Assembly (NCBI GenBank): GCA_947652325.1 | Contig: CANTCQ010000007.1 | Location: forward strand, 3,160-67,159 | Direction: 5' to 3' | DNA length: 64,000 bases | Origin: an uncultured Mycoplasmatota bacterium | GTDB taxonomy: Bacteria; Bacillota_I; Bacilli_A; RF39; UBA660 | Part shown: positions 40,779-58,351 of the stretch, in pieces | Layout of the letters: the number at the start of each line of letters is the position of its first letter | Numbering within the stretch: position 1 is the stretch's first letter | Notes under the pieces: model-generated | Databases searched by the model: none | The model's input: only the letters and a program-made list of their open reading frames with translations | What the model was told of the DNA's origin: nothing | Position numbers and translations under genes: made by a program

Positions 40779-41423
40779 ATGCATAATTTTAAGCAAAAAA
40801 AATTAACTGATTTACAAATAGAAGTCATGTCAAACTGTGTCAATATAAAAAAGAAAACATTTAAAACCGGAGAATACATTTTAAGTTTTGGATTAAGACA
40901 AAAAATGATAGGACTTGTAGCTGTGGGAAAAGCCGATATTATTCGTATCGATATTGATGGAAATGCTTCTGTTATTAAAAAGTTAATTCCTGGAAGTATT
41001 TTTAACGATGCTTTTTCCTGTTTTTCGAATACTTCCACTTTTGTAATAAGCCGAACAGATACAGAAATTTATTTTATTGATTATGCCCAAATCATGACGA
41101 ATTGCTTAATGAACTGCAAATATCATCATCAAATGATACAAATCATTTTAGAACTTTTAACGGAAAATACTATTATTTTAAATGAAAAAATCGAAATTTT
41201 AAGTTATCCGAAAATTCGTGACCGTATTTTATCTTTTTTATCTATCAAAATGGAAGATATTCATACACAAAGCATTACCCTTCCCTTTTCTATTACAGAA
41301 TTTGCAGAATTTTTATGTGTAGATAGAAGTGCTTTAATGCGTGAACTTAAAAAAATGGAGAGTGATGGAATTATTAGGCGCCATAATAAAACCATTACTT
41401 TATTAAACGTTTCACATTACTAA
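40779..41423 (+). CDS. Crp/Fnr-family transcriptional regulator.
   Basis: cNMP-binding-like beta-roll and C-terminal HTH (FSITEFAEFLCVDRSALMRELKKME). Start MHNFKQKK after GGGAGG. Confidence 0.75.
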   Translation: MHNFKQKKLTDLQIEVMSNCVNIKKKTFKTGEYILSFGLRQKMIGLVAVGKADIIRIDIDGNASVIKKLIPGSIFNDAFSCFSNTSTFVISRTDTEIYFIDYAQIMTNCLMNCKYHHQMIQIILELLTENTIILNEKIEILSYPKIRDRILSFLSIKMEDIHTQSITLPFSITEFAEFLCVDRSALMRELKKMESDGIIRRHNKTITLLNVSHY

Positions 41424-42177
41424 TGGCATTCTTTTCGATTCTAGAGACTTGGGCTTGAGAAATGCCCAAACTTTGTGCAATTTCCATTTGGGTTTTGCCA
41501 ATAATGAAACGTTCAACAAGTACATTTCGTTCTCGTGTTTTAATTTTGTTAATAGCACGCCTTAAAGAAATGAGCATATCTTTGTCTTCTCTCATATCTT
41601 TTTTATCCGCAATTTGGTCTAGTAAATAAATGGTATCTCCACCATCATTATAAATTGGTTCAAAAATACTCATGGGTTCCTTTAAACTGTCTAGTGCAAA
41701 GTTAATTTGGTATTCTTCTATTTCTAATGCTTTTGCTATCTCTTTATTTGTAGGTTCCACTCCATTTGTTTTTAGACAATCTTCTTTATATTTTATAATC
41801 GAATATGCTAAGTCTTTTATACTTCTACTTACGCGAATGGAAGTATTATCTCGGATATATCTTTTGATTTCTCCCACAATTAAAGGAATAGCATAAGTTG
41901 ATAATTTTAAATTATAAGATAAATCGAAATTATCGATAGCTTTTATTAAACCAACAACTCCGACTTGAAACAAATCATCTAAATTGTATTTTTCTTTATT
42001 AAACTTCTTTAAAACGCTTAATACCAGTTTTAAATTTCCTTCTACGAGTTCATCTTTCGCTTTCACATCTCCTGCTTGATACCGTTTAAAAAGTTCAACC
42101 ATTTCTTTTTGTTTTAATACTTTAAGATTACTTGTATTTACATTGGTAATGTCCACTTTATATTTACTCATAAACAA
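41395..42177 (-). CDS. sigG: Sporulation sigma factor SigG (forespore late).
   Basis: Sigma-70 regions 2-4. It is immediately downstream of sigE in the conserved spoIIGA-sigE-sigG cluster. Confidence 0.85.
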   Translation of the reverse strand: MFMSKYKVDITNVNTSNLKVLKQKEMVELFKRYQAGDVKAKDELVEGNLKLVLSVLKKFNKEKYNLDDLFQVGVVGLIKAIDNFDLSYNLKLSTYAIPLIVGEIKRYIRDNTSIRVSRSIKDLAYSIIKYKEDCLKTNGVEPTNKEIAKALEIEEYQINFALDSLKEPMSIFEPIYNDGGDTIYLLDQIADKKDMREDKDMLISLRRAINKIKTRERNVLVERFIIGKTQMEIAQSLGISQAQVSRIEKNAISNVKRLIK

Positions 42178-42240
42178 AAGCTCCTTTCATAGTTGTTTTG
42201 CTATGAAAAGAGCTTTTTTATTCTTTTTTTTGCTTTTTTA

Positions 42241-42930
42241 TTATGTTTTTAATAAATTTTTTAAATTTTTAATTACTTTTTTTTCAATTCTTGATATATA
42301 TGATTGACTAATTCCAAGCATTTCTGCTACTTCTTTTTGAGTATATTCTTCTGTATTATTTAAACCGTACCGTAAAACCATAATTTGCTTATCACGGGGT
42401 TCTAGTTTATTGATTTCGCTTGCAAGCATCCTTTTATCCATGGAATTTTCAAATTCTTTAATAACAATATCTTCTTCTGTTCCCAAAATATCTTCTAAAT
42501 GCAATTCATTTCCTTCGGAATCATAATTTAAAGCATCTTCAAACGATATTTCTGTTTTTCTTCTTTTGTTTTTTCTTAAAAACATTAAAATTTCATTAGC
42601 AATACAACGCGAAGCATAAGTAGCAAGTTTAATGTTTTTATCAATTTTATATGTATTAATCCCTTTAATTAAACCAATGGAACCAATACTCACTAAATCT
42701 TCAATGTCATATCCAGCGCTCTCATACTTTTTTGCTAAAAATACGACCAATCGTAAGTTGTGTTCAATTAACGAATCTCTCGCACTTTCATCGCCTTCTT
42801 TTAATCGAATTAAAAGAGAAAGCTCTTCTTCTTTACTCAAAGGTGGGGGGAGTTTATCTGTACTTCCCACAAAGAAACATTCTGCGTATTTTTTCCTTAA
42901 CCACAAAATGATTTTTTTAATTATATTCAT
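42241..42930 (-). CDS. sigE: Pro-sigma-E (mother-cell early sigma factor precursor).
   Basis: The N-terminal pro-sequence ...YAECFFVGSTDKLPPPLSKEEE is typical of pro-sigmaE. Sigma-70 r2-r4 follow. Confidence 0.9.
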   Translation of the reverse strand: MNIIKKIILWLRKKYAECFFVGSTDKLPPPLSKEEELSLLIRLKEGDESARDSLIEHNLRLVVFLAKKYESAGYDIEDLVSIGSIGLIKGINTYKIDKNIKLATYASRCIANEILMFLRKNKRRKTEISFEDALNYDSEGNELHLEDILGTEEDIVIKEFENSMDKRMLASEINKLEPRDKQIMVLRYGLNNTEEYTQKEVAEMLGISQSYISRIEKKVIKNLKNLLKT

Positions 42931-43715
42931 GATAGTTCCTCCATTAATTTATTATTTAATATGCATTCTACACCTTCTAAAGAAAATTTTTTGTCGCTTA
43001 TACCAAGCAAATAATTTTTATAAGTTTTTCCTTGTATTTCTACTCTTTCTGGTTTTAAACATTTTATTAAGTTGTGATTATTTAAACTATTAAAAGGAAC
43101 ATAATAATATTTTATATTTTCCTCGTTTATTACTCCCTTTTGGAGCAAAATAATGGGCTTATTTGTTATGGGGTCAACGAGTTTATTTCCTGTATCTAAA
43201 AAACCATGAAGTGTATATTTTTTTTTCTCTTTTAAAATAATTGTCACTTCATAAATCAAATTATAATTACTTTTCATTTTTTTTGCTTGCCTATAATAAA
43301 TATATAATATAACAGGGGAAAAAATGATTAAAAAAATAGCATTTATATTAAGTCCTTTATTTATAAAGATAAGTCCAATGTGGGAATAACTGAATTCTAA
43401 ATTTAAATAATATAAGAATCCTCCTAAAATGACACTAATCATGTAAAAATACCCAAAATTATTTACAAAATATTTTATATCTTTAAAACCAAATGTAAGA
43501 ATGTTCATCAAACAGGCTAGTCCTATTTTAAAGAAAAAAAGAAGAATATTATTGGTATTCCAAAATAAAAACAAAGTAGAGAGACTTCCTACGATGGCTC
43601 CCAAACCTATTTTTTTTAGTGGGGCACTTCTTTTTAATACAATAGAAGTTGTCATTAAAAGAAGAAAGTCTAAGTATAAGTTTAAAATAAGAACTAAATC
43701 TATGTAGACTTTCAT
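42927..43715 (-). CDS. spoIIGA: SpoIIGA pro-sigma-E processing aspartic protease.
   Basis: Five N-terminal TM helices and C-terminal HGFLDTGNKLVDP (DTG). Start MKVYIDLV with RBS AGGTGAT. Confidence 0.85.
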   Translation of the reverse strand: MKVYIDLVLILNLYLDFLLLMTTSIVLKRSAPLKKIGLGAIVGSLSTLFLFWNTNNILLFFFKIGLACLMNILTFGFKDIKYFVNNFGYFYMISVILGGFLYYLNLEFSYSHIGLIFINKGLNINAIFLIIFSPVILYIYYRQAKKMKSNYNLIYEVTIILKEKKKYTLHGFLDTGNKLVDPITNKPIILLQKGVINEENIKYYYVPFNSLNNHNLIKCLKPERVEIQGKTYKNYLLGISDKKFSLEGVECILNNKLMEELS

Positions 43716-43776
43716 ACTATCACCTAAAAGAAGTATACAAAAAAACAACATAAAATTATGTTGTTTTTTGTATTAT

Positions 43777-44871
43777 TTAAAATCCATTGTGATTTCTTAA
43801 AAATGGTGGGATATCATATTCTGAATCAAAATCTTCTTCCCTATTTCTTCCTCTATTTTTTTGTTCACGTTGTCCATATTGTGGTTCATCATCACGACTG
43901 CTAGATGTTTGTTTTCCATCAAATCCAGTTGCAATAACGGTTACAATAACTTCTTCATTTAAATTAGAGTTAGGTATTGCCCCAAAAATAATATTGATAT
44001 CGTTATTTGCAGCAGAACGTACGGTTTCTACAGCATCTTCAATTTCAAATAAAGTTAGAGAATCTCCTCCTGTGATATTAATAATAGCATCTGTAGCTCC
44101 TTCTATAGTTGTTTCCAGAAGAGCACTTGATACAGCTTGTTCTGCAGCTTCAACAGCTCGATTTTCACCAACACCCATTCCAATACCAATCAAAGCGGTT
44201 CCTGATTTTTCCATAACAGTTTTAACATCTGCAAAATCTAGGTTAATAATTCCAGTTACTGCAATTAAATCAGAAATGGATTGTACTCCTCTATGTAATA
44301 CGTTATCTACTTCTTTGAAAGCATCTTGAAAACTTGTTGTTTTGTCAATAATATCGCGTAGACGGTCATTTGGAATAATGATTAATGTATCCACGTGTTT
44401 TTTAAGTTCTTCTAAGCCTACTAAAGCATGTTCCATTCTTCTTTTTCCTTCAAAACGAAATGGTTTTGTAACAATTCCCACTGTTAAAGCTCCTAAATCT
44501 TGCGCTATTTCTGCAATAACTGGAGCTGCTCCTGTACCTGTTCCACCACCTAAACCACAAGCAATGAAAACCATATCTGCCCCACGAATAGCATTTTCAA
44601 TTTCAGATTTACTTTCTAAAGCTGCTTCCCTACCTACTTCTGGATTAGAACCAGCTCCACGACCACCTGTAATATTTTCACCAATTTGAATTTTATGTGG
44701 TGCACGTGATGCATCTAGCACTTGTTTATCTGTATTTACTACGTAAAATTCAACACCTTGTACACCTTCTTCTATCATTCGATTTACTGCATTACAGCCG
44801 CCACCACCAGCACCAAATACTTTTATTTTCGCAATTGGGTTTATTTTTAATCCGTTACTTATCCCGTCCAT
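43777..44871 (-). CDS. ftsZ: Cell division protein FtsZ.
   Basis: GGGTGTG tubulin signature. Confidence 0.95.
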
Positions 44872-49995: not shown

Positions 49996-50268
49996 TTAGT
50001 TAACTGATTCTTTTAATTTGCTTCCAGCTTTGAATGAAACAACAGTTTTAGCTGGGATTTTAAGTGGTTCTTTTGTTAATGGATTAATTCCTTCACGTGC
50101 AGCTCTTTCTTTAGCACTGAATGTTCCAAATCCTACAAAAGTAACTTTTCCTTCTTTTTTTAGTCCTTCTGTAATTGCTTCAAATGCAGCATCTAATGCA
50201 CGACCTGCAGCAGCTTTTGATATTTCAGCTTGTTCAGCTATTCTTTCGATTACATCTTGTTTTGACAT
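49996..50268 (-). CDS. hup: DNA-binding protein HU.
   Basis: HU/IHF fold: GFGTFSAKERAAREGINPLT arm motif. Start at MSKQDVIER. Confidence 0.9.
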   Translation of the reverse strand: MSKQDVIERIAEQAEISKAAAGRALDAAFEAITEGLKKEGKVTFVGFGTFSAKERAAREGINPLTKEPLKIPAKTVVSFKAGSKLKESVN

Positions 50269-50376
50269 AATTTTTCTTACCTCCAAATTTTTTATTTTTT
50301 ATAAGTGCATCAGCCTTACATACTAAAAATAGCAAATATTCAAATCAAAAGCAAGAAAAAATAAAGTCTTTTGTCA

Positions 50377-51855
50377 CTATATGACAATTGTAATTAAATT
50401 GCTTGACCCTTTATTGACAATCTTCGTTACTGTTTGGCTTAGTTTATAACGCATATTTTCGGGCATTACAGACAATTTTGCTTGAATTCCTTCTTTTACA
50501 ATTACATCTAAACTACGGCCAAATATTTCACTTTTCCAAATACTTCCAGGGTCTACTTCATAATCTTTCATTAAATAGTTAATAAGTTCTTTACTTTGTA
50601 ATTCACTTCCAATAATAGGTTCAAAAGTAGATTCTACATTTACTTTCATTAAATGAATGCTTGAGGCTACTGCTTTTAATTTTACTCCATAACGAGAACC
50701 TTGTTTTACAATTTCTGGTGTAGATAAAGTCATATCTTTTAAACTAGGATACACAATACCATATCCAGTACTTTTAGCCATTCGTAAGGCTTCTTTCATT
50801 CCATCTAGCTCTTCTTTTCCTTCTTTGTAACTTGCAAATATTTTTAAAAGACCTGCTTTGGTTGTTACCATATCGCCCATTAAATCTTTTAAAACATCAT
50901 TATAGAGTTCATCGCTACTTTCAAGCGTAATTGTTATTACTCCTGTTGAAGTATCTACTTCGCTAATGTAACTTTTTGAAATAATTTCCGAATCATTAAA
51001 CAATCCCAATATATTATCTACATCGCGTATTTTATTAACAGAAATAACACTTTCTTTTATTTTTTCTAGGTAATATTTCTTTATATAATGATTATTATCT
51101 AAAACATGTACCCATTTGGGAATTTGAACATTAATATCTAAAACAGGAAATTCATACAAAGCCTCTTTTAAAACATTTAAAATTTCTGGTTCTTCCATTT
51201 CTGTTGCATTAAGAGGAATAACAGGAACTTCATACGTATTTCTAAGTTCATGAGCCAAATTGTTAGCAGTTTCACTGTTTTTGTTTTTTGTGTTTAGTAC
51301 CACAATAAATGGTTTACCAAGTTCCTTTAATTCAGCTACAATTTTTTCTTCAGCTTCTATGTAATTTTCTCTTGGGATTTCTCCAAACGTTCCATCAGAA
51401 GTCATCACAATGCCAATGGTTGCATGGTCTTTAATTACCTTTTCTGTTCCAATTTCTGCCGCTTCATAAAAGGGTACAGAATCTTCAAACCATGGTGTTT
51501 TTACCATTCTTGGATTTCCATCTTCATCTACATGGCCATTTGCTCCTTTTATAACAAACCCGACACAGTCTACTAACTTTATATTCGTTGAGAATTCTCC
51601 TACTTTTATTGTAGCACCACTGGAAGGTACAAATTTGGGTTCAGTTGTCATGATGGTTTTTCCTTCTGCACTTTGAGGGATTTCATCTAAGCATTTTCTT
51701 TTTTCATATTCATCTTCAATGTTTGGAACCACTAAATTTTCAATAAAACGTTTGATAAAAGTTGATTTACCACATCGTACGGCACCAACTACACCTAAAT
51801 ATATTTCACCATTACCACGAGTTGCAATGGATTTAATTATTTCACTTTTTTCCAT
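50377..51855 (-). CDS. spoIVA: Stage IV sporulation protein A (spore coat basement-layer ATPase).
   Basis: Walker A GVVGAVRCGKSTF, 492 aa, next to hup as in Bacillus. Confidence 0.9.
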   Translation of the reverse strand: MEKSEIIKSIATRGNGEIYLGVVGAVRCGKSTFIKRFIENLVVPNIEDEYEKRKCLDEIPQSAEGKTIMTTEPKFVPSSGATIKVGEFSTNIKLVDCVGFVIKGANGHVDEDGNPRMVKTPWFEDSVPFYEAAEIGTEKVIKDHATIGIVMTSDGTFGEIPRENYIEAEEKIVAELKELGKPFIVVLNTKNKNSETANNLAHELRNTYEVPVIPLNATEMEEPEILNVLKEALYEFPVLDINVQIPKWVHVLDNNHYIKKYYLEKIKESVISVNKIRDVDNILGLFNDSEIISKSYISEVDTSTGVITITLESSDELYNDVLKDLMGDMVTTKAGLLKIFASYKEGKEELDGMKEALRMAKSTGYGIVYPSLKDMTLSTPEIVKQGSRYGVKLKAVASSIHLMKVNVESTFEPIIGSELQSKELINYLMKDYEVDPGSIWKSEIFGRSLDVIVKEGIQAKLSVMPENMRYKLSQTVTKIVNKGSSNLITIVI

Positions 51856-52148
51856 TTATACTAATCCTTTCCTCTTTCTACTTAACCGTATGAAAAAAGA
51901 AAGTCTTTTAGAACTTTCTTGTGAATTTTATTTCTTACATTGTTTTTGCAAGTCGTTTAAATGAAGTTTTATTCTTCTTTGTAATATTTCCGTTTTGGTA
52001 GGAAAAAAGGCGGATATTTCCGAATTTAATTCTGCAAAAAAATCGTTTAAAGATACCGTACATGCGTTTTCTAAACAACAACTTGCCTATCTACATCTTT
52101 TAATACAATTCTATAGCAATTTTCTATAATCATCAATAATTAAAAAAA

Positions 52149-52355
52149 CTATTTTTCTTTTTCATAGAAAATATCATCTGGCTTTAAATCGAATACCTTT
52201 GCAATATTTTTAGCCATATCATAATAAAGTCTTCTCTTTTTATGTTCAATTTGCCAATAAAAACATTTACTAATTTTTAATTTTTCGGCCATATCATCAT
52301 AACTATATTGTTTTGCCTTTCTTATTTTAGTTAATTTAGGATACCCATTTACCAT
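52149..52355 (-). CDS. Small XRE/Cro-like HTH regulator (68 aa), copy 1.
   Basis: HTH_3: YSYDDMAEKLKISKCFYWQIEHKKR. ~65% identical to the 53197..53418 product. Confidence 0.7.
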   Translation of the reverse strand: MVNGYPKLTKIRKAKQYSYDDMAEKLKISKCFYWQIEHKKRRLYYDMAKNIAKVFDLKPDDIFYEKEK

Positions 52356-52469
52356 ATATATACTTCACCTTTTTCTATTTAAATTAATTATAACACAATT
52401 TATAACTATATCCCACATATTCCCGTATTTTAAATTTTTTTAGGAGAAAATTATTACTAGGTGATTCTA

Positions 52470-52904
52470 ATGTATGAAATCCTAAAAGATTTAAGAGAGT
52501 ACCATGATTTAACCCAACAAGAAGTAGCTGATGCTCTTAAAATAAGTCGTTCTACCTATGCTGGATATGAAAGTGGAAAAGATGTTATTCCTTTAAAAAG
52601 GTTAAATGACTTTGCTAATTTTTATCATACAACCATTGATTATTTAGTAGGAAATAGTCCTACTATGGAAGAAGTTTTAATTTACCATACTTTTGATAGA
52701 AAGCAAGTTGCCCAAAATCTAAAGTCCTTTCGTGAAACTCGTAATATTACTCAAGAAGAGATTGCCGAAAAAATTAAGGTAAGTCAATCTTGTATTCATA
52801 AATACGAAACCAATAAAATTTTAATTACCACTTATTATACTTTAGAGTTTTCTAAGCAATACCACTATTCTTTGGATGAATTATTAGGAAGAAAAAACAA
52901 CTAA
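52470..52904 (+). CDS. XRE-family regulator with two tandem HTH_3 domains.
   Basis: The two HTH motifs are LTQQEVADALKISRSTYAGYESGK and ITQEEIAEKIKVSQSCIHKYETNK. Divergent from the small XRE. Confidence 0.7.
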   Translation: MYEILKDLREYHDLTQQEVADALKISRSTYAGYESGKDVIPLKRLNDFANFYHTTIDYLVGNSPTMEEVLIYHTFDRKQVAQNLKSFRETRNITQEEIAEKIKVSQSCIHKYETNKILITTYYTLEFSKQYHYSLDELLGRKNN

Positions 52905-52920
52905 TTTTTTAGTTGTTTTT

Positions 52921-53172
52921 TTAAAACATTTTGTCTATATTTTTGGGTACTTTATCACTTACGATTGTATTAATTATTTTATCTTCTTGCTCTTTGGATA
53001 CTTTCTTACCAGTCATTAAACTCAGAGTATTTATCACTTCTCGTAATGTATTTTCATTTTTCATATTTCCATCTTGTAATTTTTTAGCTAAATCAATGAT
53101 AGTATCTTTATTTACTTTTGTTTTCTTTTCTACTTTCTGAAAGAAATCATCTTTAAATTCCATTATACTCAC
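52921..53172 (-). CDS. spoVIF: Stage VI sporulation protein F-like (SpoVIF/YjcC family).
   Basis: FFQKVEKKTKV...DLAKKLQ..N.KNENTLREVINTL...KKVSKEQEDKIINTI matches the SpoVIF pattern (FFKNIEKKTGV...LA..LQ.ANF.DE.TVR.VI..V......V.KE.EDKIV). Confidence 0.55.
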   Translation of the reverse strand: MSIMEFKDDFFQKVEKKTKVNKDTIIDLAKKLQDGNMKNENTLREVINTLSLMTGKKVSKEQEDKIINTIVSDKVPKNIDKMF

Positions 53173-53196
53173 CTAGTAGTAATATATGAAATCTTT

Positions 53197-53418
53197 TTAT
53201 TTCGTTGTCATTTTTTCTTTTTCTTCATAAAAAATATCATCTGGTTTTAAATCAAAAACTGCTGCTATTTTTACAGCCATGTCATAATATAGTCTGCGAT
53301 TTTTATGTTCAATTTGCCAATAGTACGCTTTGCTTATTTCTAATATTTCAGCCATATCTTTACAGCTTAATTTTCTTTCTTCTCTTAATTTTTTTAAATA
53401 GTTTGTACTATTGTCCAT
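53197..53418 (-). CDS. Small XRE/Cro-like HTH regulator (73 aa), copy 2.
   Basis: LSCKDMAEILEISKAYYWQIEHKNRRLYYDMA. Paralogous to 52149..52355 at both protein and DNA level. Confidence 0.7.
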   Translation of the reverse strand: MDNSTNYLKKLREERKLSCKDMAEILEISKAYYWQIEHKNRRLYYDMAVKIAAVFDLKPDDIFYEEKEKMTTK

Positions 53419-53475
53419 AAAAACCCTCCAAAGTGTTTTTTATCATACTCTATATTTTTTAGAATGTCAATTTTA

Positions 53476-53534
53476 TATAGTTATAGCTAGGTAGACTTAC
53501 AAAGACTTAATTTCTATAGTTATTAGTAGGTAGA
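53476..53534. promoter_or_regulatory. Two 20-bp direct repeats, TATAGTTATAGCTAGGTAGA and TATAGTTATTAGTAGGTAGA, spaced 39 bp apart: candidate operators between the divergent XRE genes.
   Basis: Read directly at 53476-53495 and 53515-53534. The related motif TTATAACTATA (reverse complement) lies in the paralogous intergenic region at 52410-52420. Confidence 0.5.
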
Positions 53535-53548
53535 AATGAGGAAAATAT

Positions 53549-53821
53549 ATGAAATGTATTCGAAAAATTATTGGGGAAAATTTAAAACTTTTGCGCTATA
53601 AAAGTGGAAAAAGCCAAGAAAAATTTTATGAAGAATATAAATTAAGTTCTAAATATTATGCTTGTATTGAACGTGGTGAAATCAATATGACTATTGACTT
53701 TTTAGAAAAACTTGCTAAAACTTTGCATGTCGACATATCAGAGTTTTTTAATCGAGATGAAACAAGATTTGTTGATAAAAAACGAATTGATGAAAAAGAA
53801 AAAGAAGAATGTTTAAATTAA
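53549..53821 (+). CDS. XRE-family HTH regulator (90 aa).
   Basis: HTH_3: KSQEKFYEEYKLSSKYYACIERGE. Its end overlaps the der stop by 4 nt. Confidence 0.65.
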   Translation: MKCIRKIIGENLKLLRYKSGKSQEKFYEEYKLSSKYYACIERGEINMTIDFLEKLAKTLHVDISEFFNRDETRFVDKKRIDEKEKEECLN

Positions 53822-55125
53822 TCTTCTTTTTTATTTTTAAATTTTAATAGAATTGGTGTTCCCGAAAAATCAAAATTTTCTCTTATTTTATTTTCTAAAT
53901 ATCTTTCATAACTAAAATGAATTAATCCTTTATTATTTACTTGAAAGGTAAATTTTGGAGGTTTATTATCTGTTTGGCTTGCAAAATAGATTTTCAAACG
54001 TTTTCCTTTATAAGAAGGTGATTGGTGCATCGCTACTGCCTCTGTAATTACATTATTTAAATCGCTTGTTTTAATTTCTTTTTTGTTATTTTCATAAGCA
54101 GAGATTATAGCAGGCATAAGTGTATGTAATCTTTTTTTAGTTGTTGCTGAAACAAATACAATATTAGCATAGGATGCAAACATAAAGTGCGATTCTAAAT
54201 TTTTCTTCCATACTTTTATGGTTTTATCTGGGTCTTCAATCGTGTCCCATTTATTTACAACGATAACAATCCCTTTTCCTGCTTCTATCGCGTAAGATAA
54301 AATGTGTTTATCGTGTTCTATAATTCCTTCTTCGGCATTTACAACAAGTACACAAACATCACTTCTATCCATTGCTTTTAAACTACGAAGTAGACTGTAT
54401 TTTTCAATATTTTCATAAATACGCCCTTTTTTACGCATTCCGGCTGTATCAATTGCAACATATTCTTCCTTATTATATAAAAAAGGAGTGTCTGTTGCAT
54501 CTCGAGTAGTTCCAGCAATATCACTTACAATTACTCTTTCTTCATTTAATAAAGCGTTGATAAGGCTACTTTTTCCTACATTTGGTCTTCCAATAAAACA
54601 AAATTTAAGACGATTATCTTCTTCTTTTTCTTGTTCTAAGAAATCTTCTGTAATATTTTCTAACAGTTCTTCAAAACCTAAATTATGCGTGGCACTTATA
54701 GGTAATACTATTGCAAATCCTAGTTCATAAAAATTATAAATTAACTCATTTCTTTTTTGATTATCGATTTTATTCACTGCAACAATTACTTTTTTATTGG
54801 TTTTTATGAGCATATCACGAATTTTTAAATCACTTGCACTCATCTCTTCTTTGCCATCAACTACAAATACAATACAATCTGCTTCCTCTATAGCAAGTGT
54901 TGCTTGCGCTAAAATATCTTTGTTCCAATCATCATTATTATCTTCTATTCCACCCGTATCAATTAGTAAAAATGATTTGTTTTTATAAAATACATCTCCG
55001 TAAATCCTATCTCTTGTTACACCGGGTGTATCTAAAACAATCGATTTATTTTCTTTGATTAAACGATTAAAAATTGTAGATTTTCCTACATTCGGTTTTC
55101 CAATTAAACAAACAGTTTGTTTCAC
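53818..55125 (-). CDS. der: GTPase Der/EngA (tandem GTP-binding domains plus KH-like domain).
   Basis: Two G-domains (GKPNVGKST and GRPNVGKSS Walker A; DTGG/DTAG). Confidence 0.95.
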   Translation of the reverse strand: MKQTVCLIGKPNVGKSTIFNRLIKENKSIVLDTPGVTRDRIYGDVFYKNKSFLLIDTGGIEDNNDDWNKDILAQATLAIEEADCIVFVVDGKEEMSASDLKIRDMLIKTNKKVIVAVNKIDNQKRNELIYNFYELGFAIVLPISATHNLGFEELLENITEDFLEQEKEEDNRLKFCFIGRPNVGKSSLINALLNEERVIVSDIAGTTRDATDTPFLYNKEEYVAIDTAGMRKKGRIYENIEKYSLLRSLKAMDRSDVCVLVVNAEEGIIEHDKHILSYAIEAGKGIVIVVNKWDTIEDPDKTIKVWKKNLESHFMFASYANIVFVSATTKKRLHTLMPAIISAYENNKKEIKTSDLNNVITEAVAMHQSPSYKGKRLKIYFASQTDNKPPKFTFQVNNKGLIHFSYERYLENKIRENFDFSGTPILLKFKNKKED

Positions 55126-55724: not shown

Positions 55725-56957
55725 ATGTCTAATTTTAGCAACAATACAATTAAAGACGAAATAGAAAATTTGTTTCCAAATGAAAGTGTATATGATGTAA
55801 TTCATTTTATAAAAAAAATAAAAAAATTAATTCCTTTTGATTCTAAAGAAAAACTTGCTTATTTTAACGAAATTATAATATATGTTGATGGATTAATTAA
55901 TGGAGATATTATTTCTCAATATTCTACTTATGATGGTTTATCTAAGTATGCAAAAGAGGCATTTGATACCATTCTGCATTCTATTCATAAACAAATATTA
56001 GAATCTTACAAACAAGAAAAATATGAATTAGAAACAAGTATTAATAAGCTATCGAATGAACAAAAAGTACTTACAGAAGATGTTTCTAACTTACAACAAA
56101 AAAAGACAGATTTACAAAATGATACTTCTACTCTTGCTTTAGAACTTTTAAAAATCAAAGAAGAATTAGAACAACTAAAAGTAGAAGGGGTTAAAAATGC
56201 ACATGCAGAATTAGATAGTGAAAAAGAAATCATTCAAGCAGAAATTTCTACATTGAAAGGTGAAAAAGATAATTTAACTACTGCTACAGGCGAACTAAAA
56301 ACTTTATTAGCCAATTATAATCACACTATTTTAAAGCTTTTAGGGGATGAATCAAATAATTCCTGTACTTGGGAGCCTGTAAGTAAGGATGATGCCATTT
56401 ATAATACCAATGTATATACTATTGATAAATATGTTAAATCTTTAAAACGCACTTATCAAGAAAAAATGGGAGTATCTGAAAAAAAAGCTGAAAAAGATTT
56501 TAAAATGCATTGTCCTGGATTAACAGAATTTGTAAGTATATTAAAAGAATTTACTAACAAGATTCCTGAATGTGCTTCCGTTACAAATATTATTAATTTC
56601 GATAATTGGAACGAGAAAGCAAATTTCGATGTACAACGATTAATTGCAACATTAAAACTCTTAAAAATGCCAGCTTATTCTCCAAAAAAGATAAGTAATA
56701 TAGATAGTTATAGTATAACTCCAGATACGATTTCCAATAATATGAATATTATGTTACGAGAATTACATTTACAAAGAGTTGCCATGGAAGCAGTTGCAAA
56801 GCAAAAGATTTTAGAGGCAGAGCTTAAATCTGTTATTGAAATTTTAAAAAATGTAGTTCCTCAAGATTTTGATTTTGCACCACTTCTTCAAATGTATGGT
56901 CAAATAGACAGCTTGTTGCTTGATGAATTTAGTAATGATGCTAAGTTAACATTATAG
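55725..56957 (+). CDS. Hypothetical coiled-coil protein (410 aa).
   Basis: The central ~150 aa have a heptad-rich Q/E/L/K composition. No catalytic motifs. Confidence 0.5.
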   Translation: MSNFSNNTIKDEIENLFPNESVYDVIHFIKKIKKLIPFDSKEKLAYFNEIIIYVDGLINGDIISQYSTYDGLSKYAKEAFDTILHSIHKQILESYKQEKYELETSINKLSNEQKVLTEDVSNLQQKKTDLQNDTSTLALELLKIKEELEQLKVEGVKNAHAELDSEKEIIQAEISTLKGEKDNLTTATGELKTLLANYNHTILKLLGDESNNSCTWEPVSKDDAIYNTNVYTIDKYVKSLKRTYQEKMGVSEKKAEKDFKMHCPGLTEFVSILKEFTNKIPECASVTNIINFDNWNEKANFDVQRLIATLKLLKMPAYSPKKISNIDSYSITPDTISNNMNIMLRELHLQRVAMEAVAKQKILEAELKSVIEILKNVVPQDFDFAPLLQMYGQIDSLLLDEFSNDAKLTL

Positions 56958-57698: not shown

Positions 57699-58235
57699 CT
57701 ACTTCAAATATTCCTCATCAATCTCTTCGATTGCTTCTTCTTCTTTTTCACTTAAAATGTCTTCATCCGTAATAATTTCATATTCATCTTCCTCTTCTTC
57801 GATTGAAACTTTTATTTTTGTATCTCCTACTACTTCTACTCCAAGTTCTTTTTCTACATTTAATTTTACAATACCTTCATTTACAGATACATTGGTAACT
57901 GTTGGTTGTTTTAAACTCCTTACAATAATTTCTTCTTTGTTTGTAAGAGTCATATTATCCTTTAGATGTACTGGCATTTTTTCTTGATAACTAAAAGAAT
58001 TGTTTGTAACAGCTGTTTTTGTATCATTATCATAAGAATACCAAACATTTACATCAAATGTTCCTTCAATGTTTACAATACCTCCATTATTTCTTCCTTG
58101 AAACTGGTGGTTAATCACCCAACACCCTAAAATAGTGTCTGGTCTTAATTCTGGTGTAATTGTAAAATTTGATGTACTGGTTTTTTTAGCTTTTCCAATA
58201 ATTGCTTTTGTTACTATCTCTTTGTAATTTGCCAT
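57699..58235 (-). CDS. cotE: Spore coat morphogenetic protein CotE.
   Basis: The N-terminus MANYKEIVTKAIIGKAKK...FTITPE...ILGCWVINHQF...NVWYSY.D.TKT is collinear with B. subtilis CotE, and the tail is acidic. Confidence 0.8.
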   Translation of the reverse strand: MANYKEIVTKAIIGKAKKTSTSNFTITPELRPDTILGCWVINHQFQGRNNGGIVNIEGTFDVNVWYSYDNDTKTAVTNNSFSYQEKMPVHLKDNMTLTNKEEIIVRSLKQPTVTNVSVNEGIVKLNVEKELGVEVVGDTKIKVSIEEEEDEYEIITDEDILSEKEEEAIEEIDEEYLK

Positions 58236-58351
58236 TTTCGTAACCCTCCTCTATTTTAATGTATGCTACTCTATAGTATTTGTTCACATTCCTTTGCTAT
58301 TTTTATACTTTTGTGCTAGGATAAATTCTACATTTATTTAGAGGGGGTATT

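Follow-up and report, generated by a model that had tools for sequence, protein, structure and literature searches.

Does a pair of phage-type regulators govern a late sporulation gene at this locus, or do the regulators only lie beside it? The question is raised by part of the 64-kb stretch of DNA analysed here (the window; about 27% G+C; all positions below are window positions unless a related locus is named). There a homologue of the sporulation gene spoVIF lies between two divergent pairs of genes for XRE-type helix-turn-helix (HTH) proteins, sX1<>dHTH and sX2<>X90, with spoIVA and der outside the pairs. We consider it possible, at somewhat less than an even chance, that a domesticated Cro/repressor-type module adds a second, regulator-gated, sigmaA-type transcriptional input to spoVIF. 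The genes concerned are the following.

52149-52355, minus strand: sX1, the copy-1 small regulator, a Cro-sized XRE/HTH protein of 68 amino acids (aa) (Pfam HTH_19, E=3.5e-8)
52470-52904, plus strand: dHTH, 144 aa, a tandem of two XRE HTH domains (HTH_3 in two stretches, E=5.5e-22)
52921-53163, minus strand: spoVIF homologue, 80 aa from ATG 53163 (Pfam PF14069, E=6.6e-21)
53197-53418, minus strand: sX2, a 73-aa Cro-sized XRE protein (Pfam HTH_19, E=4.9e-11)
53549-53821, plus strand: X90, a 90-aa XRE protein (Pfam HTH_19 and HTH_3)
53818-55125, minus strand: der
50377-51855, minus strand: spoIVA
49996-50286, minus strand: hup

The gene content described in an earlier note on this DNA was upheld by gene calls and Pfam searches. 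There are two divergent pairs of a small and a larger XRE gene, the small proteins are 65.2% identical over 66 aa (about 65% had been claimed), one plus-strand partner carries HTH domains in tandem, and a SpoVIF-like gene lies between the pairs. All four regulators (4/4) pass the Pfam gathering thresholds of HTH_19 and/or HTH_3, which places them in the XRE/Cro-C1 HTH family. The start of dHTH was set at ATG 52470 and not at GTG 52461 because a conserved AGGTGA Shine-Dalgarno sequence lies at 52459-52464.

The spoVIF product scored 74.2 bits on PF14069 (cut-off 27) and 72.3 bits on the NCBIfam equivalog model NF052662, and a search of the protein collection gave 2087 family matches, of which the closest 120 were listed. 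By these scores the gene is a member of the SpoVIF family and may share the function of B. subtilis SpoVIF (YjcC); the two have a Pfam family and a putative sigmaK-type promoter in common, whereas the score obtained here is under the equivalog cut-off of 130. SpoVIF is a spore-coat gene in most Bacilli and is not found in Clostridia (PMC3533761). In B. subtilis it is reported to be a coat-assembly gene functionally linked to GerE (Kuwana 2003 and 2004).

Distribution and stepwise assembly of the cassette

Related loci were collected by a SpoIVA-seeded scan, and the best 80 of 571 loci were compared. The 80 loci all belong to metagenome-assembled genomes (MAGs) of uncultured Bacilli from the gut of mouse, rabbit and human; among them are 'Mycoplasma sp. 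CAG:776' and relatives of Candidatus Caccenecus and Coprovivens. The full order der-X90<>sX-spoVIF-dHTH<>sX-spoIVA was found in 10 loci (SpoIVA 75-93% identical), and X90<>sX-spoVIF only was found in 11 loci (SpoIVA about 70-75%), in 4 of which the der-X90-sX-spoVIF block is inverted and lies 6 kb beyond spoIVA. One locus, L067 (7087-7617), has sX-spoVIF without X90 directly upstream of spoIVA, which suggests that sX-spoVIF is the minimal conserved pair. The divergent upstream open reading frame (ORF) of L067 encodes 116 aa and is not HTH-like by eye. A further 16 loci have spoVIF without an XRE gene, a distribution that is weighed below as a point against the reading we favour. In 11 of the 16, no more than about 1 kb separates spoVIF from spoIVA, which is downstream, and 6 of those 11 also have der upstream, giving the order der-spoVIF-spoIVA.

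Since the order der-spoVIF-spoIVA without XREs is found in more distant relatives, the position of spoVIF between der and spoIVA is ancestral. The proposal that the whole stretch of about 1.7 kb had been inserted between these genes was therefore not sustained: the XRE genes alone were added. The comparison of loci shows assembly in two steps, with an XRE pair placed beside spoVIF first and the small gene later duplicated across and joined to a tandem-HTH gene. Nor was a complete module duplicated, as had also been claimed. The small gene alone has a duplicate (77% DNA identity between sX1 and sX2 over 183 nt), the partners are only distantly related (29% identity between X90 and the C-terminal domain of dHTH), and the control regions are unrelated. 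The resemblance between the copies at the DNA level that the note had seen in genes and flanks thus holds for the genes but not for the flanks, as the two intergenic regions show no homology beyond their coding parts and have different conserved footprints. In a neighbour-joining tree, the copy-1 proteins formed one clade beside a near-clade of copy-2 proteins, with the weak resolution of a 70-aa protein; no further sX paralogue was found in the window. In B. subtilis, der and spoIVA are separated by gpsA, yphE and yphF, and their description as neighbours in Bacillus is about right; spoVIF is not known to have neighbouring XRE genes there.

The cassette X90<>sX-spoVIF-dHTH<>sX recurs in many species-level MAGs. 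Three more distant proteins of the sX family (58-59% identical to sX2, one of them an sX1-type copy) were all encoded in the five-gene cassette, and the cassette was intact both with murE/padR-type genes in the place of der (L083, L084) and without spoIVA downstream (L085, L086). Another locus, L087 (3924-4894), has two tandem dHTH copies inside the cassette. Nearly every locus has all five ORFs intact; the two in-frame stops that appeared may be extraction artefacts. Median pairwise ratios of nonsynonymous to synonymous substitution rates (dN/dS) for the five genes were 0.21-0.35 (0.21 for sX1, which has orthologues in 11 related loci, and 0.25 for dHTH), rough values with dS near saturation. 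The cassette is real and under purifying selection.

The earlier note had held that XREs inside an intact prophage of related genomes would indicate a remnant with no link to spoVIF. Neither the related genomes nor the three extra contexts placed sX in a prophage; it was always found by spoVIF in a chromosomal cassette. As the note had stated, no phage genes were found at the locus or in the relatives, and gene calls, a tRNA scan and composition gave no tRNA gene, GC shift or compositional anomaly at the locus. An Rfam scan found no features. The neighbours are housekeeping and sporulation genes, in the relatives as in the window, so that the location of a phage switch in a prophage, or its control of phage genes, has no counterpart here. 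Collectively, these data suggest that the cassette is chromosomal and vertically inherited, around an ancestral der-spoVIF-spoIVA-hup order, in AT-rich spore-forming uncultured gut Bacilli.

Among close relatives, the distance between sX1 and spoIVA ranges from 87 nt to 2.7 kb. In the window this interval contains a 48-aa ORF (51935-52081, minus strand) that is the 3' remnant of a gene of about 280 aa, which both L001 (2403-3263) and L002 (7091-7930) retain whole. Relative to these two loci, 1.5-2.7 kb of hydrolase and NUDIX-type genes has been lost from the interval in the window.

Promoters, terminators and repeats

The transcription signals nearest to spoVIF, and those shared by sX2 and X90, are the following.

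53180-53209, minus strand: putative sigmaK-type spoVIF promoter, -10 CATATATTA at 53180-53188, -35 'AC' in GACAAC at 53204-53209
52891-52922, both strands: bidirectional terminator-like hairpin between the convergent dHTH and spoVIF genes, 14-bp stem, U-tracts on both strands
53442-53470, minus strand: putative sX2 promoter of sigmaA type, TTGACA-17-TATGAT, 11/12 consensus matches
53492-53520, plus strand: putative sigmaA-like X90 promoter, TAGACT-17-TATAGT, 9/12 consensus matches, weaker than that of sX2
53465-53498: conserved control core, GTCAA-N-TTTTnTrTAGTTATAnnTAGGTrGACTT, containing repeat 1
53476-53495: repeat 1, TATAGTTATAGCTAGGTAGA, between and over the two -35 boxes
53515-53534, plus strand: repeat 2, TATAGTTATTAGTAGGTAGA, over the -10 and the likely transcription start/leader of the X90 promoter

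The -35 of the putative spoVIF promoter overlaps the last codons, at the 3' end, of sX2. Its -10 fits the B. subtilis sigmaK -10 GCATANNNTA, taken with the other sigma consensus sequences from the table in PMC3416734, at 6/7 specified positions. Just upstream of the spoVIF Shine-Dalgarno sequence, nearly all of the 38 related loci carry the pattern AC-N15/16-CATATAnTA, whether or not they have sX; a few (e.g. L029, L046, L053, L060, L070) have a degenerate -10. These features suggest that spoVIF is expressed late in the mother cell, under sigmaK, from its own promoter.

A second source of transcription is suggested by the placement of sX. In 22/22 related loci having sX, it lies upstream of and co-directional with spoVIF, with a gap of about 30-75 nt and no terminator; in the window the sX2-spoVIF gap is 33 nt and contains no hairpin (z=0.18). 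At the other end of spoVIF, the hairpin between it and dHTH has energies of -13.6 and -11.4 kcal/mol (z = -3.7 and -3.9). With its own late promoter and no hairpin after sX2, spoVIF is therefore positioned for transcription from both promoters, that of sX2 by read-through, and the two genes would be co-transcribed.

The intergenic region between sX2 and X90 is conserved and spans 130 bp, and its footprint was read from an alignment of 22 sequences. The most conserved columns were the -35 and -10 blocks of both promoters: the GTCAA of the sX2 -35 was invariant and ATnATA conserved, and GGTrGACtT at the X90 -35 was invariant or nearly so. The two promoters are back-to-back, with -35 boxes 21-22 bp apart, and the GTCAA-to-GAC distance keeps to 30-32 nt. 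Thus, as in a CI/Cro switch, divergent genes with back-to-back promoters share one short control region. At its other end, X90 is convergent with der; their stop codons overlap by 4 nt (53818-53821) with no terminator between, the same tight junction is present in L002, and X90 transcription would thus run antisense into the der 3' end.

The 20-bp direct repeats that had been reported in this region are present and significant. They are identical at 17/20 positions, and 0/300 dinucleotide shuffles reached 17 (shuffle maximum, 16). The related copy-1 motif that had also been reported corresponds to the 11-mer ATATAGTTATA, which occurs exactly twice in 64 kb (52401-52411 and 53475-53485; 0.16 expected), once in each XRE intergenic region. 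In most relatives, however, the copy-1 site reads TTATTACAATAA, and the identity of copy 1 to ATATAGTTATA is therefore lineage-specific. Exact TATAGTTAT sites number four in the window, all within 52299-53523; the fourth is inside the sX1 coding sequence (52299-52307, minus strand). This clustering of motifs in this genome is more than chance. Neither the 19-mer core nor the 11-mer gave extra window sites above expectation that would point to a wider regulon. Set against the operator set of a CI/Cro switch, the locus thus has two 17/20 repeats and a third related site in this genome, and one element conserved across species.

Signals in the region between sX1 and dHTH, whose footprint comprises 12 species, and upstream of spoIVA are the following.

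52387-52395, minus strand: putative sX1 promoter, extended -10 TGTTATAAT, ATTATA invariant in 12 species
52401-52411, minus strand: copy-1 ATATAGTTATA, in the spacer of the putative sX1 promoter
52423-52453, plus strand: two conserved blocks upstream of dHTH, CCGTATTTT and GAGAAAATTA, a putative sigmaF/G-type promoter
51885-51920, minus strand: putative sigmaE-type spoIVA promoter, -10 CATACGGT; a hairpin with U-tract upstream parts spoIVA from sX1

The ATTATA is preceded by ACAC, that is, an extended -10 TGnTATAAT for sX1, and the consensus suggests that this is the sX1 promoter. Further elements of the footprint are a TTATT-AC-AATAA dyad and CCCAC. Upstream of dHTH, CCGTATTTT is nearly invariant (10/12 species) and GAGAAAATTA is invariant in 9/10 columns; the two blocks keep a fixed spacing, without gaps and with a variable spacer sequence, and are unique in the window. 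Compared with the B. subtilis consensus sequences (PMC3416734), they match sigmaF GTATA-N14-GGNAANAMTR at 6/8 specified -10 positions and sigmaG GNATA-N17-CAWAMTA at 5/7 specified positions. They also resemble the upstream region of the window's own sigG, GAATA-N18-CAAAACA, a sigmaG/F-type pattern. The dHTH promoter would thus be of the forespore (sigmaF/G) type, a better fit than sigmaA. A sigmaA promoter for dHTH was considered and rejected, there being no acceptable TTGACA/TATAAT pair.

At spoIVA, a CATAnnnT -10 block was present in almost all 80 loci (unclear in a few, e.g. L037, L059, L061), with a looser, A/T-rich -35 region (GTTCTAAA, GTATAAA, TTATATTTTT and similar). The hairpin upstream of this promoter has an energy of -12.2 kcal/mol (z=-2.05). 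The sigmaE-type assignment agrees with the sigmaE dependence of spoIVA in B. subtilis (PMC517825).

Elsewhere in the window, a sporulation cluster, ftsZ-spoIIGA-sigE-sigG, lies at 41395-44871 (minus strand). A gene at 57699-58300 (minus strand) encodes a 178-aa acidic protein of unknown family and is preceded by AGCATACATTA, a perfect match to the sigmaK -10 GCATANNNTA; it may be an unannotated late mother-cell gene. Between a pilin gene and the rpsP operon, a 410-aa coiled-coil protein without a Pfam family is encoded at 55725-56957 (plus strand), with weak matches only, to JetC/MukB-like proteins (PADLOC, E=7e-6) and PbeC.

Phage kinship of the small regulators, and relatives of their partners

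Small regulators of Bacillus, Listeria and Geobacillus phages are 52-54% identical to sX. The homologues in Bacillus phage vB_BceS-MY192 and Geobacillus phage GBSV1 hold the Cro position, near the integrase, and face a larger XRE repressor encoded divergently. In IMG/VR, an alignment-based scan detected sX relatives (33-61% identity) on 44 viral contigs. In 17/18 viral contigs examined, a divergent ORF of 69-157 aa lay within 450 nt of the sX relative, and by inspection nearly all of these 17 had a typical cI-like HTH N-terminus. As in a CI/Cro switch, therefore, the small protein is homologous to phage Cro-position regulators, and descent of the small sX proteins from Cro-position regulators of temperate Bacillota phages is supported. 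The phage derivation that had been suggested for the locus fits the small XREs but not X90, for which the viral contigs gave one weak match only; X90 therefore cannot be called phage-derived.

The two domains of dHTH are 37% identical to each other, and tandem-HTH regulators of Brevibacillus phages are about 31% identical to the full-length protein. AlphaFold2 without an alignment gave an unusable dHTH model (mean predicted local distance difference test [pLDDT] score, 59). The X90 model is a five-helix HTH fold, residues 1-70 having blockwise mean pLDDT values of 87-97. Its 20-aa tail is of low confidence and unstructured in the model, yet conserved in sequence (KKRIDEK), and the tail residues R79 and D81 are invariant in 18 orthologues. 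A fold search with X90 found generic XRE neighbours only, every E-value being above 1e-3, and a word-index search gave 7 close matches only and was uninformative.

Lambda CI/Cro is the paradigm of phage immunity switches. The cassette resembles the immunity regions of temperate Bacillota siphophages such as MY192 and GBSV1 in its divergent pair of a larger and a small XRE gene with a homologous small protein, in a small gene that heads a co-directional operon, and in back-to-back promoters in a short shared region. Unlike them, it has no integrase, ImmA protease, anti-repressor or replication genes and no conserved set of repeated operators, it is chromosomally fixed across many species, and the cargo of its 'early operon' is one host sporulation gene. 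Phage repressors join an HTH to an oligomerisation or cleavage domain, whereas X90 is HTH-only and dHTH is a tandem HTH; neither has what gives a CI-type repressor its induction signal, a domain for oligomerisation or sensing (an S24 peptidase, or else a partner of ImmA type).

Closer to a chromosomal setting are the prophage-remnant XRE pairs of B. subtilis, namely SknR (YqaE)/YqaF in the skin element and Xre in PBSX. These are chromosomal cI/Cro-like XREs without a functional phage, and the skin pair is physically tied to sigK. The skin and PBSX pairs still govern adjacent genes of phage origin within an element that can be recognised as such, whereas the locus studied here keeps no phage-derived cargo and has the pair in duplicate around spoVIF. 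SinR/SinI and SlrR of B. subtilis are likewise XRE HTH regulators that gate a developmental decision, and X90 matches SlrR and SinR weakly. Unlike SinR, X90 has no C-terminal helical hook, its tail being predicted disordered; there is no SinI-like antagonist gene, and the gene arrangement is different.

A possible second input to spoVIF and its alternatives

In the reading we favour, spoVIF would keep its ancestral sigmaK-type promoter, and hence late mother-cell expression, and would in addition lie second, behind sX2, in an operon transcribed from the near-consensus sigmaA-type promoter. With X90 in the place of the repressor and sX2 in that of Cro, the two proteins would bind the shared region and choose which promoter fires, each perhaps repressing the other, and would thereby gate a second, sigmaK-independent input into spoVIF. 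Because its recognition helix is almost identical to that of sX2, sX1 probably recognises the same kind of site, and with dHTH it would form a second divergent pair. The forespore-type (sigmaF/G) promoter of dHTH would tie the cassette to the sporulation programme. These proteins may bind the DNA and may form a cI/cro-style bistable switch, as the earlier note had pictured it; control of sporulation by the XREs is plausible. Of the note's claim that the module is positioned to control a late sporulation gene, the link to spoVIF stands (constant adjacency, no terminator, cassette cohesion), whereas dependence does not, given that the gene's own sigmaK-type promoter is kept with or without XREs.

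Several observations weigh against this reading. As general operators the repeats fare poorly: repeat 2 is conserved in 0/18 related genomes, which have no comparable significant direct repeat, the one in the L002 intergenic region (p=0.03) being at an unrelated position. The inner near-palindrome AGTTATAACT between the -35 boxes is a perfect palindrome in 2 species only and varies in the others, and in 10 other genomes, taken one by one, no motif common to both intergenic regions exceeded shuffles. The repeat and the 11-mer of both control regions are specific to this genome, much of the conserved signal between sX2 and X90 can be explained by the two promoters alone, and any operator here is hypothetical. 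X90 has no domain for sensing, cleavage or oligomerisation, and neither an ImmA-like partner nor a protease gene lies nearby, so that a switch would lack its input signal. Each sigma assignment depends on 5-7 matches in DNA of 27% GC, and the dN/dS medians are, as noted, rough. Finally, since 16 related genomes have no XRE and spoVIF keeps its own promoter, the XREs may be irrelevant to spoVIF.

The last point leads to the strongest rival, which we judge rather unlikely: that these are autonomous domesticated regulators beside spoVIF, acting on themselves and perhaps on unlinked targets, or in immunity against related phages, with spoVIF under its sigmaK-type promoter alone. The sameness of the spoVIF promoter in genomes with and without XREs agrees with it, as do the patchy occurrence of XRE genes among genomes of similar SpoIVA divergence, the variable genes downstream of sX1 (hydrolases, peptidase S51, rhodanese/RmuC, or nothing) and the absence of a detectable XRE-type operator inside the spoVIF promoter. 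It accounts less readily for the 22 related loci in which sX is always upstream of and co-directional with spoVIF without a terminator, for the persistence of sX-spoVIF without X90 in L067, and for a cassette that stays together when its flanks change. Moreover, read-through from an 11/12 sigmaA-type promoter would be hard to avoid.

A bolder form of the favoured reading, which we regard as improbable, would make the cassette a true sporulation control node: a domesticated phage switch with spoVIF as its sole 'early-operon' cargo and a forespore-expressed tandem-HTH partner, giving SpoVIF outside the sigmaK window or at a heritable on/off level. SpoVIF might then be a small co-factor of the sX HTH proteins, a role that can be likened to its functional tie with the small HTH protein GerE in B. 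subtilis. XRE pairs are ubiquitous, and in that respect the cassette is a familiar kind of module.

We think it very improbable that the cassette is a timing device like the controller (C) proteins of restriction-modification (R-M) systems, in which a small autoregulatory HTH protein would set a threshold or delay for spoVIF without a two-state switch. C proteins are small XRE dimers that autoregulate from sites beside their own promoter. By profile and fold X90 comes closest to them: its best match in the PADLOC defence library is the R-M 'Control_protein' model (E=2e-13; sX2 matches the same model at 1e-5), and C.BclI, C.AhdI and C.Esp1396I are among its closest solved sequences and folds. 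The order of a small HTH gene followed by cargo also mirrors C-R operons. However, the similarity is at the family level only, with no fold-search E-value below 1e-3, and the most C-like protein, X90, is encoded by the divergent gene and not by the gene upstream of the cargo. No restriction or methylase genes lie around the locus in the window, and no C-box of the GACT-N3-AGTC type was seen by eye between sX2 and X90, no formal search for the motif having been made.

That the locus is a decaying prophage remnant or a toxin-antitoxin or defence locus without a host regulatory role is scarcely credible: its proteins do match generic phage-repressor and antitoxin HTH models, but all these matches cover the HTH domain alone and score under the cut-offs of the curated families, those to antitoxin models far under; the ORFs are intact nearly everywhere, with dN/dS medians well below 1 across SpoIVA identities of 67-93%; the neighbouring ORFs are all HTH proteins, SpoVIF, der or spoIVA, with no toxin of a type II system; and no integrase, toxin, structural or defence effector gene lies nearby in the window or in the related loci examined.

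If the XRE pair does gate spoVIF, as in the reading we favour, a phage immunity switch would have been recruited into the late mother-cell sporulation programme, showing a rewiring of the coat/GerE branch in reduced-genome uncultured gut spore-formers. Otherwise, the cassette would still be a clean, datable example of the stepwise domestication and duplication of a Cro-type regulator. The locus also provides usable promoter footprints, of sigmaA, sigmaE, sigmaK and possibly sigmaF/G type, for a lineage without a cultured member.

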